Positions 6,006 through 63,685 of a DNA stretch of 64,000 nucleotides are shown in pieces. The number at the start of each line of letters is the position of its first letter. Within the stretch, counting starts at the first letter, position 1. The notes beneath the pieces are model-generated. The model ran no database searches, was not told the origin of the DNA, and was given only the letters and a program-made list of their open reading frames with translations. The translations under genes were made by a program, and so were the position numbers. Source of the stretch: a virus; the IMG/VR virus record IMGVR_UViG_3300025030_000051, positions 1-64,000 of that record; one strand, 5' to 3'.

Positions 6006-6558
6006 TAAAATAAAATAAAATATTTGAATCAGTATAACTTTTTAAACTAAAAAATCACTTATATATAGATAAAAATTCTTGTTTAACCTTTTTAATTACT
6101 ACCTAAATTTTTTGTTAAAAATTTCTTGAATAAAAAACAACTTTAGGTACATATAAATAATTATATGTATACAACGGGTACATATCATTAGCAGAACAAA
6201 ATTATTTAATTTTTAACTAAAAAGATATTTTATTTCTATTATAAATCAAATATGATTCATTATAGAAATGAAATGTAGTTTTTAAAGTTTGGGTGACGAA
6301 AAACTTTGTTTCAAATATTTAAATTTTTCTTTTAGTTTTAAATAATATTTTTGTTTCACATAATTTTGTTGAAAAATTATATGGGGGCGCTAATTATCGT
6401 TTTTTAGTCTAATTTATTAAACTTTAATTACTACTTTTAATATATGCCGTCCATTTTTATTAAATTTAGAAAAATATTTAAATGAAATAATAAAAGTCTA
6501 CCACCGTACTACAACTACGACAACAACATTTTTCCTTCTTTGAAGTGGAAAGCAAGAG

Positions 6559-57774: not shown

Positions 57775-58002
57775 TTATCCATGGAGTATCTCTTTATATC
57801 GTTCAAATTGAGATTTAAACAACTCATCTGTATATAATAATTGTTCTCCGTCTTCATCTATTACTATCCAATCGTTTTTATTTGCTTTTACTTCAGTCAG
57901 AGTTTTACCGCCTTCTGTAAGTAAGATAACCTTTCTATCAGAAATAACTTGATTGGCTATTACTAGATTATTACTTAATTTTTTTTTATATTTTTCGTTC
58001 AT
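57775..58002 (-). CDS. hypothetical protein
   Basis: ORF track; ATGA overlap with upstream gene. Confidence 0.5.
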   Translation of the reverse strand: MNEKYKKKLSNNLVIANQVISDRKVILLTEGGKTLTEVKANKNDWIVIDEDGEQLLYTDELFKSQFERYKEILHG

Positions 58003-59336
58003 TTATCTTCTCCAATCTTTTTCAATTTAGGCAAAACTGGTAAGGCAATATTTTCATTAGTACGTTTTAATTTTGGTAATGGAGGAAGTACTATATCTTT
58101 AGTTTCTGGAAACTTAGGGACGTTTTCTTCCATTATTTTATCTAATTCTTCTATCATTTTATCGAATGAAAACTTTTCTTTGTTTTGTTGAGCTAACAAC
58201 CTTGCGTTTGGTAAAAATGTTTGATATCTTTTCCAAACGTCTACCATAACTTGAGAGGCAAATGAATAGTTTATATTGAACCAACTAGAGTTTGGTTCAA
58301 TTACTCCATTCCAAACAGCAGAAGGATGAACCTGCTTAATTTCACCAGGTAACAATAATACTAATTCTTTCGGCAAAAAATCAACATGTCCAGACCATCC
58401 ACTGACCATAATAGGCTTTTCGCTTAAACTTGCTTCAAGCAGAGGCCTACCAAAGCCCTCTCCTTTTGTAAAGCTAACGTGTATTTTTATCTTAGAATGA
58501 TTATATAGTCCATTCATATCTTCAGAAGACAGATCGCCAAATAATAAATAAATATTTGGCAAATCACCCTTTATATCCTTTTTTATTGCTTCAATTTTTC
58601 TAATAGTATCAAGTCTGTCAATATAAGAAAATGTATTTCCAGTTTTTAATAATAAAGCAGGTTTATTAGGCTTATTTTTAAACGTTTCTAAAAATGTCTT
58701 AATCAACATTCCCACATCTTTTCTATCAGCTCCAAGTCCTCCTTGTAGCCAATGGCCTACAAATAAGAAAACAAAATCTTCTTTTATTTTATTTAATTCG
58801 TGCCTAATTTTAGTCTGAATATTTTCAGTTTTATAAAAAATAGAAGTATCAACACCCTCAAATAAAACATGAATTGGTTTAGTACAACTCAAATTACCAA
58901 TAACCTGCTTTGTAACATTATCTTGCTGAGTATATTTTGTATTAACAAAAACGTTCTTAGCAAAAATAGAAGGAACAATATTGAAGTTCATTCTGTTCAG
59001 TCCTTCAATCCAAGCTGGGGAACATATTGTCGTCTCAATACCGGCTGTAATGCCTATATTAAACATTGCTATTTGTTGAAACTCATTTGGAACTGATAGT
59101 TGTATAGAAATTTCTGGTTTTTTTGGTAAATTAGGAGTTGGAATTATTTTAGATATAATTTCATCATCAATGCCCTTTTTTAAAGCAGACCTGGGGAGTG
59201 TTCCCCAACGAATAGATAAAATTTTAATATCATATTTATCTATTTTTAAAAGAGAATTAACTATTGATTTAGAATGTTCGCCATAACCTGAACGGGAATC
59301 AACAGGACCAATAAACAATAAAGTTGGTTTACTCAT
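57999..59336 (-). CDS. glycosyltransferase family 4
   Basis: SRSGYG, FLFVGHW, RKDV, KGEGFGRPLLEA. Confidence 0.9.
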   Translation of the reverse strand: MSKPTLLFIGPVDSRSGYGEHSKSIVNSLLKIDKYDIKILSIRWGTLPRSALKKGIDDEIISKIIPTPNLPKKPEISIQLSVPNEFQQIAMFNIGITAGIETTICSPAWIEGLNRMNFNIVPSIFAKNVFVNTKYTQQDNVTKQVIGNLSCTKPIHVLFEGVDTSIFYKTENIQTKIRHELNKIKEDFVFLFVGHWLQGGLGADRKDVGMLIKTFLETFKNKPNKPALLLKTGNTFSYIDRLDTIRKIEAIKKDIKGDLPNIYLLFGDLSSEDMNGLYNHSKIKIHVSFTKGEGFGRPLLEASLSEKPIMVSGWSGHVDFLPKELVLLLPGEIKQVHPSAVWNGVIEPNSSWFNINYSFASQVMVDVWKRYQTFLPNARLLAQQNKEKFSFDKMIEELDKIMEENVPKFPETKDIVLPPLPKLKRTNENIALPVLPKLKKIGEDK

Positions 59337-59666: not shown

Positions 59667-61145
59667 TCATATATGTATCAACTCATATCTTTCTCTCGGT
59701 TTAAATTCTTCAAAGCACCTTTCCATATCCTGAATAAATCTTCTGCACATTTCAGATGCCTCCATACCTACTTCTTTTTTGAGCATAAATTCCCTTCCCA
59801 ATAAACCGTATTCCTTTCTCTTTTCATATCCTAAATTATACAGATATAATAGTCCTTCAGCTGCATCTTCCCATTTTGCCCTATCGTCAAAAATATATGG
59901 AGTTGGTGGTGAACCAACTAAACCCCTTGCTGCTGGGAATAATGGAAAAGCCCACTTACCACATTTTTTGAATCTACCATCATGATTACTACCCCATTTC
60001 TTGTCAAACTTAATTGGATTCCCTTCATCATCTACAAATCCCATCTGATCTTGAAGTCCACCAGTAACTGTTGCTAAAATAGGAGTTCCACTCATTAATG
60101 ATTCCGCTGTTGCTAGACCAAACCCTTCAGCACTTGCTAAGTTTATCGTAACATCAGAAATGTTATATAAATAGTTCAATTGAAACGATGGTAATCTTGC
60201 ATCATAATAAATAATATCATAATCCTTACACAATTCATTACCGACCTCTGGTAAATCTGTTCCGTTAGGATCAACTAATTGAGTATGCATTATCAACACG
60301 CATTTTTTTGCATTTTCTTTTGATAATTGATCACAAAACAATTTAAATGCCAAAATTACATCACCTGGAGATTTTCTTTTAATATTTCTATTATTATATA
60401 AAATTATAAAATTATAATCTTTATCACCAAAAATATCTTTCCTATATTTAATCATCCCTTCGTAATCATTCTTTAATTCCTTAACTCCATTGTTATCAAA
60501 TTCACGAACAATTCCTTGCTCTAATTCTGTAATTGGAAAATGGTTTTTTGAATTAATACCGTGTGGGATATAAGTAATTATTCTTTTGTCTGAACCTAAA
60601 ACATTATTAACAATATTTTCAGTCTGTTTACTGATACACATTAATAGATCACATCCCTGATAATAGGAACGATTATAAGTTGGATTGGGAACGTTATCCC
60701 AAACTGTATAAAAAAACAATGGTATTTTTTGTCTTATTTCGTGTTCCATATTAAACATCCAAATAAACTGTCGCGGATCTGTATACATCATTACTGCATC
60801 AATATTTAATTCTTCAATTAACGAACGAATTAAATCTGGATCTCCATAACCATCATTTGGTTGAATGACAACCTTTGCATCTGTTATTCCTAATGTAGCA
60901 TTTACATCTTGAGAAACATCTATACGTTTACCTTTATCTGGATGATTTATGGCAGCGCCAATTTGAAAAAAATTAAACCTATGAGCTGTACCCATTACAA
61001 TTTCTTTTGATACTACACCTACACCTGATGATAATCTTAGCTATAGGTCATCTGATAATAGAAGAATATTTTTACGATCTTTTTGTTGAACGTATTCATA
61101 TTCATTTATTATCAAACGACCTATAGTACCTCCATTCTCTATCAT
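59667..61145 (-). CDS. glycosyltransferase family 4; full gene interrupted by in-frame CTA-TAG-CTA (61038-61046)
   Basis: GGAG RBS + ATG 61145; RKNILLLSDDL*LRLSSGVGVVSKEIV in frame with ORF 59667..60995; NRNIKRK, EGFGLA..E. Confidence 0.88.
61041..61126 (-). other. long mRNA hairpin ending exactly on the UAG; candidate bypass stimulator
   Basis: CUAUAGGUCGUUUGAUAAUAAAUGAAUAU pairs with AUAUUCUUCUAUUAUCAGAUGACCUAUAG: 27 of 29 positions, first 20 contiguous (2 G-U). Confidence 0.85.
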
Positions 61146-61293
61146 TTTTTACTCCAATATAAATTGTTATAAACACTTTTTTGATTATCAAAAATCATCG
61201 AATAGTTATAACCATTATTTATTACACCTTATTTTTTAAGTAATAAATTTTTTTCATTTTTATTAAAAGTCCACATTGATTTGACTTCTACAA

Positions 61294-61494
61294 TTAAATC
61301 ATATTATTTAATGCATCATCTATCAGTTTTTCCAACATATCATCATAAGTAAAAAAAATATCATGTGGTCCAGTTCCATGTAAGTTAGATATTAATTGAC
61401 AAAGTCTGATATCATATTGTTTTTCATATAATTTTAAAAGTTTTTCAATTAAACGTTTTTTATCTTCTGGATCTCTATAATTTATATATTTCAT
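61294..61494 (-). CDS. conserved phage protein
   Basis: RDPE..KRLI...DIRLCQL...DIFF. Confidence 0.6.
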   Translation of the reverse strand: MKYINYRDPEDKKRLIEKLLKLYEKQYDIRLCQLISNLHGTGPHDIFFTYDDMLEKLIDDALNNMI

Positions 61495-61676
61495 AATAAA
61501 CTTCCGCTTATTTGTAAATAATTTATTTTATTAACAATTTTATCCCTAAATTGAGATTCACTTAGAAAAAATTTTATACAAGTATCAACAAAATTTGTCA
61601 AATTAATCTTATTATTAAAACAATCAACTTTAAATTCTTTGTATTGACTTTCTTCTAAATTTATAGATGTAAGCAA
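61491..61676 (-). CDS. RHH-like small DNA-binding protein
   Basis: LTSINL...YKEFKVDC...LTNFVD.CI. Confidence 0.55.
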   Translation of the reverse strand: MLTSINLEESQYKEFKVDCFNNKINLTNFVDTCIKFFLSESQFRDKIVNKINYLQISGSLL

Positions 61677-61850
61677 AATAGACCCATTATTTCTTTAATG
61701 AATTAAGAAGTTCTTTTTTAACATATATGACTATAGAAGAATAAATATTTCCCCCAAGCCCAAGCGCATAATCAAAACCTTCAATTTCAGAACAAAGATT
61801 GAAAATTTTCTTGTAAATGTACCAGGTAATTTGTTTTTTATTCACTTATG

Positions 61851-61861
61851 ATATAAATATA
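61851..61861 (-). promoter_or_regulatory. TATATTTATAT putative phage-specific promoter
   Basis: Identical 11-mer at 10966-10976 and 15221-15231, each at the 5' end of an ORF or structured RNA. Confidence 0.5.
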
Positions 61862-61913
61862 ATGAAAATTTCATTTAATTTTTTGTTACTCAATTTTTCA
61901 ACTTTGACACTTT

Positions 61914-62303
61914 TTAACATATAATAATTTCTTTATTCAACTTATTAGCCATTTCTATTAAAATATGTTTCTTGTCTTCATTGTTTTCTATAAAGAATAC
62001 TATCTTCTCACAGTACTTTATATAGTTGTTATAAGTAGCGAATATATGTTTTTTACTGAATTTTTTACCAAATTTATATCTTTCTTCGGCACAATAACTG
62101 TTCCAGTGTTTATAATATGGAATAAATTCTTTATAATTTAATTCAAAATTCAAAGAAAATTTTTTGACAAACTTATCTGTTCCGTTTTCATTATCTAAAC
62201 CTACTATTTCAGTTTCTGGATGTTCCTTTTTTATCTTCCACAATAGATCCTGTATCTTTAGCTTTTGAGTGAAAAATTTGCTTCCTGTAATTCCTATTTT
62301 CAT
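61914..62303 (-). CDS. SLOG / DUF2493-like protein
   Basis: IGITGS, IVG...GTD, N.YIKYC...VFF. Confidence 0.55.
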   Translation of the reverse strand: MKIGITGSKFFTQKLKIQDLLWKIKKEHPETEIVGLDNENGTDKFVKKFSLNFELNYKEFIPYYKHWNSYCAEERYKFGKKFSKKHIFATYNNYIKYCEKIVFFIENNEDKKHILIEMANKLNKEIIIC

Positions 62304-62661
62304 CCTTTTCCAAGCTTGATTTAATTAAATTGTAAAATTGAAATACTGAATTAATAAATGAATTTGAGTCATCATAATATATTTTAAACCTGCACGGATT
62401 ATTATAATTCTTTATCGATATGTCAGCAAAAAAATGGATGTTTAATAATGGCTTATCGTGTAAGGTTATATTTCTTTTTTTACACATGTTTAAAATTTCT
62501 TCAATTTTAACCTTATCTTTTATATCATGCCATAAAAAGAATTCTAATACAATATTCTTATGCAAATTTGAAAAATACTCTATGGAATTAAAAAAAGTGT
62601 CTAAATCAGGCAGTGTATATTCTGACAACTGTATTCTAACATTAAAATGGTTTTTTTTCAA
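62209..62661 (-). CDS. hypothetical protein
   Basis: ORF track. Confidence 0.5.
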   Translation of the reverse strand: MKKNHFNVRIQLSEYTLPDLDTFFNSIEYFSNLHKNIVLEFFLWHDIKDKVKIEEILNMCKKRNITLHDKPLLNIHFFADISIKNYNNPCRFKIYYDDSNSFINSVFQFYNLIKSSLEKDENRNYRKQIFHSKAKDTGSIVEDKKGTSRN

Positions 62662-62818
62662 AATTATTTAAAAAATCTTTTAATTATTAATTCAACTAAT
62701 TCTAATTTTTGTTTTGTTATTAACATAATTGTACTATTTTTAGCACTTTCTTTCACATCAAAGAATTTTTTGTTTAAATGTTCAAGCGCTTTGTTTAATA
62801 TTATTCTATCTTTTTTAA

Positions 62819-63685
62819 TCATATTTCATTCATACCAACACTACACAAATCTTTTTTATTTTTAAATGGACAATAAAAACAATTACGTTTTGATGGATTA
62901 GCTTTATAATCAAAATTTAAGTTATAGTTTCCATTACTATCAAACACGTTATCAACAAAATCAATTAATTCTTTACCAACTTTATTTATTATTCTATCTC
63001 CAGATGGTGGCACAAATCTTTGAACCCTTTTAACTTCATAATCTTGACTTTTGAAAATTTTCTGCTTGAATATCAAAAATTCAACTTTTATTTTGTCTAA
63101 ATCAATATTATTTTGCTCAGCATAGAATTTCTTATATAGTTGCAATTGGGCTCTTTTCATCAAGTCTTTCTTGGCATTTTCTTTCCAGCCTCTATAAGAT
63201 TTCTTAAAATCGTATAAAACATAAGTATTAGAATCAATATGCTTTACAGCACAATCTATTCTTCCTATAAAATTTATATTTGATTTTATTGGTATAGATA
63301 TTTCTATTTCACAACCCAAGAACTCATAGCCCTTTTTTAAGAAATAATCACTTCTTTTTTTCTTAAACCATTCTAAAATTTTAATTCCATCTTTATAGAA
63401 TTCCATCATCTGATCTTTTGATGTAAAATCACCGTACTCAGAATATTGATTAAATATCTCTGACATTTTGTTTAATAAAATTTCGTTAAGATTTAGCTCG
63501 TTAGCAGTCTTTTCACTTTTTTCATAAAAATCAATTAAATATGTTTGTAGTGTATCATTTAATGCTGAGCCAAACAGTGAATGAATATTTACATCTTTTA
63601 CTTTATGTCTATCTATATATAATAACTTCCACTGTAATTGACAGTTTGTAAATACACTAAACTGTGAAAATGAAACGTGCTTCAT
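62819..63685 (-). CDS. PD-(D/E)XK (Cas4/RecB-like) exonuclease
   Basis: SFSQ...C..QW, FGSA, E...G.ID...YDFK, QL..Y, C.YCPF...C. Confidence 0.85.
   Translation of the reverse strand: MKHVSFSQFSVFTNCQLQWKLLYIDRHKVKDVNIHSLFGSALNDTLQTYLIDFYEKSEKTANELNLNEILLNKMSEIFNQYSEYGDFTSKDQMMEFYKDGIKILEWFKKKRSDYFLKKGYEFLGCEIEISIPIKSNINFIGRIDCAVKHIDSNTYVLYDFKKSYRGWKENAKKDLMKRAQLQLYKKFYAEQNNIDLDKIKVEFLIFKQKIFKSQDYEVKRVQRFVPPSGDRIINKVGKELIDFVDNVFDSNGNYNLNFDYKANPSKRNCFYCPFKNKKDLCSVGMNEI

Follow-up and report, generated by a model that had tools for sequence, protein, structure and literature searches.

The DNA analysed here comes from a virus whose genome has 25% G+C and was recovered from groundwater and soil metagenomes of 2014-2017. 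The window, that is the whole 64,000-nt stretch under analysis, comprises positions 1-64,000 of IMG/VR record IMGVR_UViG_3300025030_000051, and whole-record searches covered 112.8 kb, or 63% of the genome. On its minus strand lies a gene for a GT4 (GT-B) glycosyltransferase (GT) that is interrupted by an in-frame TAG, and this interruption is considered here as a candidate ribosomal bypass site (Table 1; all coordinates are window positions). Translation of the leader frame from ATG 61145 gives MIENGGTIGRLIINEYEYVQQKDRKNILLLSDDL, which ends in ILLLSDD-CTA, and the sequence following the TAG, CTA-AGA-TTA-TCA-TCA-GGT, is in the same frame as the 442-aa GT open reading frame (ORF). The 34 open codons of the leader have a chance probability of 0.027 at the local composition. 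The N-terminus of relatives reads MIINGFEYIP..RKNILLLSDDLR, and the closest of them (60-73% identity) start at ATG-ATA-ATA-AAT with a Shine-Dalgarno (SD) sequence 6-8 nt upstream and without a stable fold; compared with these, the window shows the ancestral ATG changed to TTG at 61115, together with a new SD and a new ATG ten codons upstream. No ATG, GTG or TTG occurs in frame between the TAG and ATG 60995 in the window, which is to say that there is no stop-start pair. The public annotation starts the GT at ATG 60995, and annotators should be warned that genes of this kind are called as N-terminally truncated or broken.

Table 1. Features of the interrupted glycosyltransferase locus and its upstream flank.
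Feature	Position	Strand	Observation	Basis
Decayed C-terminal stub of a DUF7487 (PD-(D/E)XK-type) homing endonuclease	61208..61312	-	two in-frame TAA	PF24308 profile
SD, GGAG	61152..61155	-	6 nt 5' of the leader ATG	direct sequence reading
Leader frame, 34 codons, MIENGGTIGR + LIINEYEYVQQKDRKNILLLSDDL	61044..61145	-	putative real GT N-terminus, including β1	
Internal GGAGG	61129..61133	-	2 nt ahead of the stem; ancestral GT SD, with a counterpart in all five alleles	
Hairpin 5' arm	61088..61126	-		fold and inverted-repeat search
TTG where relatives have the ATG start	61113..61115	-	now within the 5' arm	DNA comparison with L004 and L084-L093
Hairpin 3' arm	61041..61079	-	spans the ILLLSDDL codons and the TAG	
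Candidate take-off codon CUA (Leu)	61044..61046	-		sequence
In-frame UAG	61041..61043	-	next base C	sequence and contigs
Candidate landing codon CUA	61038..61040	-	resume codon AGA (61037-61035) is the family-invariant Arg	
Remainder of the GT4 (GT-B) glycosyltransferase	59667..61037	-	456 codons and TGA stop	Pfam PF00534, AF2
First canonical start 3' of the TAG	60993..60995	-	start of the gene callers (P0001); product without β1, the SDDLRxxSG loop and most of α1	

The GT matches Pfam PF00534 (Glycos_transf_1) with 36 bits against a cut-off of 26.4, and AF2 modelled it as two Rossmann-like domains (pLDDT 88.3, pTM 0.89). In this model β1 comprises residues 25-31, the loop that follows residues 32-40 and α1 residues 41-53; ATG 60995 corresponds to residue 51, and a product begun there is predicted to lack the first β-α unit. 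The interruption falls within the loop. The motif SDD[LIM]R..SG was found without insertion in all 119 best protein matches and in every intact DNA locus (80 from viruses, 80 from metagenomes and 66 supplied by two additional searches of viral contigs), the homologue set amounting to about 350 in total, and residues D32, D33, R37, S40 and G41 are invariant across the family. Aligned with these homologues, the window carries exactly two extra codons, a 6-nt gap that they do not have.

The same region of the messenger has an unusual folding potential. An inverted repeat with 39-nt arms provides 20 contiguous pairs, including two G-U, of which the last is formed by the G of the TAG itself. The hairpin has a minimum free energy of -40.3 kcal/mol (z = -6.05), a stability reached by none of 200 shuffled sequences, and it is the most stable 100-nt coding-strand fold in the 112.8-kb record (-37.6 vs a mean of -11.0, sd 4.5), outranking even the tRNA gene. 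Per nucleotide, the folding energy is -0.28 in the window vs -0.13 ± 0.04 in relatives. Several familiar elements were considered in turn for this structure. A repeated or mobile hairpin was ruled out because no copy of either arm exists elsewhere in the genome, an intrinsic terminator because no U-run follows the stem, and an invertible DNA switch was dropped because the spacer measures just 8-28 bp. Rfam returned sub-threshold matches to plant miRNA precursors alone, of a generic long-hairpin type.

The TAG and its 6-nt gap are genuine features of the viral DNA. Logan contigs assembled from four runs, each belonging to a different study, carry both without a single difference, a contig-level comparison in which rare variants are invisible, and two of the four runs had not been flagged as possible sources of the record; this agreement excludes an assembly artefact. 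Contigs of three runs end inside the hairpin (61060, 61069/61087 and 61133/61138), and the inverted repeat, which fragments k-mer assemblies, may conceal cassettes of this kind in public data. The genome uses the standard code: TAG ends 8 of the 59 long ORFs, no other genes merge when TAG is read as sense, the remaining in-frame TAGs being ordinary gene junctions, and no suppressor tRNA was found in the 112.8 kb, where tRNA-Met was the only tRNA detected. Genome-wide reassignment of TAG is ruled out by the TAG-ended ORFs, the single extended gene and the lack of a suppressor tRNA in the part of the genome searched. A first-pass annotation of this DNA, made from its letters alone, had described most of these features; its observations held in full, and its interpretation was supported in part. 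The layout of GGAG, ATG 61145, 34 codons and CTA-TAG-CTA in frame with the GT4 gene was borne out at every coordinate; the family motif was confirmed in the ~350 homologues, whose lack of extra residues also supports the proposed 6-nt insertion between matched Leu codons rather than a point nonsense mutation; the absence of β1 from the annotated ORF product was recovered in the structural model; and the hairpin (20 contiguous pairs, two G-U, extending to the TAG), claimed to exceed chance, held up against shuffling, the genome-wide fold scan and the covariation reported below. That other genes ending in TAG speak against genome-wide recoding likewise proved correct.

The break is not confined to this virus. 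Sister alleles were sought with a degenerate DNA pattern, DD-Leu-TAG-Leu-Arg..SG, and later with a second one in which 14-25 nt may separate the DD codons from the SG codons. The first search found L164 and L165, which represent one phage in two metagenomes and read ILLLSDD CTT TAG CTC AGA; the 18-bp hairpin of L165 has GGTCGTTTG in its 5' arm in common with the window. The second yielded L243 (TTG TAA TTG AGA) and L242 (TTG TAA TG AGA), the latter with a 5-nt gap that changes the frame. A further allele, L221, surfaced when the truncated public gene call P0056 was taken as the starting point of a search. Its sequence is SDD ATG CGC TGA, then 7 nt, then ATG ACT TCA GGC, amounting to a 10-nt frame-changing gap, and the 5' arm of its hairpin complements CGACATGCGCTGA exactly. 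P0056 itself is a 442-aa call starting MSSGVG on a 32-kb ENA contig, 26 residues short of its 468-aa relatives, and may conceal a further break at the same site. Three other pattern matches (L189, L190 and L244) were rejected as chance hits in unrelated GC-rich DNA. Counting the window, the five alleles fall into four clades of the GT tree, with 42-58% identity between clades, and each has closer intact relatives at 62-86%. A protein scan of viral contigs with the window's own GT gave no match, and no relative bearing the cassette was found in the GenBank phage collection. The codons flanking the stop match in the window (CUA-UAG-CUA), L164/L165 (CUU-UAG-CUC) and L243 (UUG-UAA-UUG) and are unmatched in L242 (UUG/AUG) and L221. 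One tRNA-Leu can read both the take-off and the landing codon in three of the four in-frame-type alleles, and in all four the invariant Arg codon follows the landing codon directly and in frame.

All five alleles share one anatomy. In each, the leader begins at a new ATG further upstream, GGAG(G) marks the 5' foot of the stem, the ILLLSDD(L) codons form the 3' arm of a hairpin that reaches as far as the stop, the stop itself immediately follows the final codon of the leader, and the GT frame is open past the gap. Compensatory double changes preserve pairing at positions -1, -3, -4, -10, -11, -12 and -16 from the stop, and in L221, where the stop comes one codon later, the stem has shifted along with it. 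The hairpin is conserved and covarying across four independent lineages. The clearest sign of constraint comes from L242 and L243, whose flanking endonuclease and GT DNA is 65-75% identical, whereas their 77-nt core, which begins at a fully conserved GGAGG and stops shortly beyond the gap, shows a lone substitution and a single-base gap indel between the two; near-identity of the core amid such flanks argues for selection on the RNA element itself. Among the alleles the ILLLSDD codons differ only synonymously, while the leaders have in common no more than an ancestral basic cluster ahead of ILLLSDD, and the 44-aa leader of L221, used as a protein query, matched only itself. The origin of an allele is most readily followed in L221, which differs from the 86%-identical intact L204 by a 10-nt insert between the Arg and Met codons; the ancestral SD has been retained, aligning with the real SD of the relative, and the ancestral GTG start has been destroyed.

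A homing endonuclease appears to be the source of the cassette. A six-frame search of the 112.8-kb record with PF24308 produced a single match (profile positions 186-220, E 4.9e-6), the stub listed in Table 1, which adjoins the leader on its upstream side. Its score of 23 bits lies under the 27-bit cut-off, as befits a remnant whose frame is not open, and its translation retains the ..IVEVKS.WTF.. nuclease motif of the intact enzymes of L242 and L243. In the latter two alleles a DUF7487 ORF lies directly upstream of the GT (93.8 and 67.9 bits, respectively), is also assigned to PHROG homing-endonuclease families and is ATGA-coupled to the leader. The same stub is present in L165/L164 and missing from L221. 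Searching with tblastn and the L242 and L243 endonucleases gave nothing significant, the stub being visible solely in the whole-record profile search. The L243 endonuclease (G004:C1:55758-56283) is itself spread over two frames, with profile positions 33-162 and 167-220 in separate ORFs, and that of L242 shows the same shift near its C-terminus, which may reflect a frameshifted gene or another recoding site. The window cassette is thus one whose endonuclease has decayed, as in T4 and other gene 60 elements. In the homologue comparison that the first-pass annotation had proposed, stops, matched codons, gaps of variable length (5, 6 and 10 nt) and hairpin covariation were all found, but its suggestion that the device sets or regulates GT output finds no support, because the break travels with the DUF7487 homing endonuclease. 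An origin in a selfish element accordingly replaces the regulatory reading, and the gap is more plausibly a scar of such an element, or an indel conferring immunity, which has to be passed in translation as in T4 gene 60.

The surroundings of the stub seem to vary within the same samples. Between 61306 and 61478, contigs of three runs match the window with 15-17 differences and then diverge below 61306, a point 6 nt from the edge of the stub; in a second haplotype the stretch from a 66-aa ORF to the GT seems to have other content, and this haplotype may lack the cassette or carry an endonuclease that is intact. The 66-aa ORF (61294-61494, minus strand) lies between a ribbon-helix-helix (RHH)-like gene and the stub, is about 90% conserved in the second haplotype and has no match in Pfam or PHROGs. 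Upstream of the GT pair (61491-63685, minus strand), gene order is conserved in all relatives (L084, L089, L093 and L165) and comprises genes for a PD-(D/E)XK nuclease of 288 aa, a 150-aa protein, a 129-aa SLOG-like protein and a small RHH-like protein.

Several observations bear on whether the interrupted GT is still made. The 457 codons past the TAG are open, for which the chance expectation is about 1e-21; of the 105 family positions with conservation of 97% or more the window GT retains 101, a count inside the spread seen for intact relatives; and the 15 codons between the TAG and ATG 60995 retain the invariant R, S and G despite the lack of a start codon. Over the same period the endonuclease has been reduced to a 35-codon stub with two stops while the GT frame past the TAG remained open. 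Since the decay of the endonuclease provides a time scale over which leader and post-TAG frame have stayed open, these sequence features indicate that the GT is very probably expressed through the break.

It is proposed that ribosomes pass the break by hopping. In this scheme the cassette would have been left by a DUF7487 homing endonuclease formerly located directly upstream of the GT gene, the TAG would belong to its 6-nt untranslated gap, and the gap would shield the allele from the endonuclease. Ribosomes starting at ATG 61145 would unwind the hairpin and arrive at CUA-UAG, where release at UAG-C would be slow and the top of the hairpin would already have re-formed behind them. The remaining 20-bp stem would then zip, pulling the mRNA forward, while the GGAGG at its 5' foot may hold the anti-Shine-Dalgarno sequence; peptidyl-tRNA-Leu would leave its CUA, re-pair with the identical CUA 6 nt on and allow decoding to continue from AGA, the outcome being the normal ...ILLLSDDLRLSSGVG... 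protein. Fold calculations with the CUA in the P site and 11-15 nt shielded show the upper hairpin already formed, and in each of the five alleles an advance equal to the gap makes the fold more favourable by 2 to 7.5 kcal/mol. This calculated gain would agree with the proposal that pairing in mRNA that emerges from the ribosome drives the bypass in gene 60 (bioRxiv 10.1101/2024.12.09.627546). Because no start codon occurs at or after the TAG before 60995, a +6 hop is the window's only route to a protein with β1 and the loop. We infer the hop itself, the parts played by hairpin and GGAGG and the protective value of the gap from sequence. A +6 CUA-to-CUA hop is regarded as the best reading of the window allele, its correctness being evenly poised; slightly more tentative is the wider proposal of a natural family of 5-10-nt bypass sites, including in-frame stop-hops, which a PD-(D/E)XK-type homing endonuclease would have spread into the SDDLR loop codons of phage GTs and which would be driven by a re-zipping coding-sequence hairpin with an SD motif at its foot.

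A number of points weigh against hopping. A canonical start stands at the stop or shortly past it in three sister alleles (UAAUG, UAA-UUG and UGA-N7-AUG), L221 has no matched landing codon, the independent lineages number just four, and stop-hopping in E. coli constructs is inefficient without stimulators (PMC5009743). Restart may therefore be the mechanism of the family, which would leave the window allele without a route to protein. In addition, the GT branch leading to the window is about 1.5-2 times longer than those of its sisters (p mostly 0.002-0.05 in Tajima tests). An almost equal rate excess is found in the intact neighbouring GT, together with the same 69% identity to its orthologue, so that the long branch is attributed to a lineage-wide rate shift; compared with their orthologues in L084, the sister phage, both GTs (57999-59336 and 59667-61040) have 1.5-2 times more substitutions specific to the lineage. 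Termination followed by reinitiation, in which a leader peptide containing β1 is released, the ribosome or a GGAGG-held 30S subunit restarts downstream and the two pieces assemble, is unlikely for the window, although the arrangement of stops and starts suggests that it fits some sister alleles better than a hop does. The overlap UAAUG in L242, UAA-UUG in L243, UGA-N7-AUG in L221 and an AUG two codons on in L165 would all serve, GGAG(G) lies 4-10 nt before those starts if the stem is counted as zero length, frame-changing gaps are explained without extra assumption, and in L165, L242, L243 and the cultured phage Mel-JY01 an ATGA overlap already divides the GT itself into separate N- and C-domain ORFs. 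That domain split, seen in three cassette alleles and the Microcystis phage (L165:5660-5663; L242:1153-1157; L243 reverse strand about 6471-6479; L002:2004-2015), has AAGGAG and an ATGA overlap at the L165 junction and resembles a clean two-gene split, not decay. Reinitiation has to contend, however, with the missing start between the TAG and 60995 in the window, whose clade has Leu where the other alleles have the AUG Met; with the loss of the invariant Arg that an AUG restart would entail in L165; with a cut inside the most conserved loop of the protein; and with matched Leu codons in three alleles, which it must treat as coincidence or a leftover of duplication.

Decay offers a different account, in which the GT was inactivated by the cassette, or by an insertion templated from the hairpin, and the phage tolerates its loss. 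In-frame stops in metagenomic phage genes are usually lesions, the window branch is long, the window has no restart codon, and both in the window and in L221 the bases gained pair with the 5' arm, the outcome expected of a template switch at a quasi-palindrome. Even so, a dead or dying allele is considered unlikely here: the lesion recurs at the same codon in four clades with an open downstream frame in each, the L242/L243 core is ultraconserved, the endonuclease has decayed while the GT stays open with its invariant residues, the intact neighbour GT has the same rate shift, the stop in L165 and L243 is not templated by the 5' arm, the leader frame, SD and ATG are intact, and no change is seen across the 2014 to 2017 samples. 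As a full account, hairpin-templated insertion was rejected, given that it fits the window and L221, fails for L165 and L243, and leaves the new upstream start, the ATG-to-TTG change and the conservation unexplained. Readthrough is the most improbable of these alternatives. A near-cognate or suppressor tRNA reading UAG-C would lengthen the loop by two residues, to SDDL-X-LRLSSG. In its favour, three alleles (the window, L165 and L243) have gaps that keep the frame, E. coli terminates weakly at a UAG with C as the next base, and a suppressor tRNA could be encoded in the remainder of the genome beyond the 63% in the record. Plain readthrough is nevertheless excluded as a general mechanism by the alleles with 5-nt and 10-nt gaps, which it cannot rescue; moreover, no homologue tolerates an insertion in this loop, confidence in an AF2 model of the readthrough form drops there (pLDDT 66 for residues 31-40), no other gene with an in-frame TAG and no suppressor tRNA were found in 112.8 kb, and the matched flanking codons are left unexplained.

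Efficient bypassing in bacteria and phages rests almost wholly on T4 gene 60 and its homologues, and stop-hops over matched codons are known to work in E. coli constructs, with no natural case known according to a 2016 review of recoding (PMC5009743). If the hop is real, the GT cassette would provide the first natural example of a stop-hop, the gene 60 solution would have been invented independently a second time, and homing endonucleases would repeatedly protect their own allele from cleavage through untranslated inserts. At about 100 nt from the GGAGG at the stem foot to the resume codon, the cassette would be much simpler than gene 60 for studying how structure in exiting mRNA moves the ribosome, and it offers natural variants in gap length, stop codon and codon match. 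Were the mechanism restart, a Rossmann domain split after its first strand would be striking in itself.

In the literature collection searched, no paper was found linking a glycosyltransferase, bypassing and a homing endonuclease, and the site is best placed by comparison with four known systems. Ordinary stop-start coupling (ATGA, TAATG) is resembled by L242 (TAATG) and L221 (TGA-N7-ATG), whereas the window has no start at or after the stop and its cut lies in an invariant loop, 30 residues into a Rossmann domain. Another phage case of short-gap bypassing shares a gap in an essential gene that is absent from homologues, with a 5' stem-loop and flanking SD as proposed stimulators, but differs in its hungry UUA sense codon as trigger, its proposed regulatory role and the lack of a linked endonuclease. 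The synthetic stop-hops of E. coli (Weiss et al., 1987, via PMC5009743) have the same codon-stop-codon arrangement with matched flanks, in which 9 nt yield one amino acid and the product, as predicted here, is two residues shorter than that of readthrough; those sites are engineered, of low efficiency and without dedicated stimulators, whereas the present one is natural, recurrent and accompanied by a conserved hairpin and GGAGG. The closest parallel is the T4 gene 60/MobA element (Huang, 1988; Manning & Atkins; Wills et al.). In both systems an untranslated insert lies in a highly conserved stretch of phage coding sequence, a stop directly follows the take-off codon, take-off and landing codons match, mRNA structure is present 5' of and around the take-off site together with an SD-like element, and the insert has as its neighbour a homing endonuclease, which in many cases has decayed or disappeared whereas the cassette persists, with a patchy distribution among relatives; gene 60 cassettes have indeed been reported to outlast their endonuclease (bioRxiv 10.1101/2022.08.31.505936). 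No sequence homology to the gene 60 cassette was found, and the GT cassette is not a member of the MobA element. The two also differ in their gap, of 5-10 nt in this family (6 nt and in frame in the window) vs 50 nt in gene 60; in the host gene, a GT4 glycosyltransferase vs the large subunit of topoisomerase II; in the endonuclease, a DUF7487 PD-(D/E)XK type upstream of the gene vs the HNH enzyme MobA between the split halves; and in the RNA structure, a single long hairpin with coding sequence, as far as the stop, for its 3' arm vs a take-off stem-loop within the gap.

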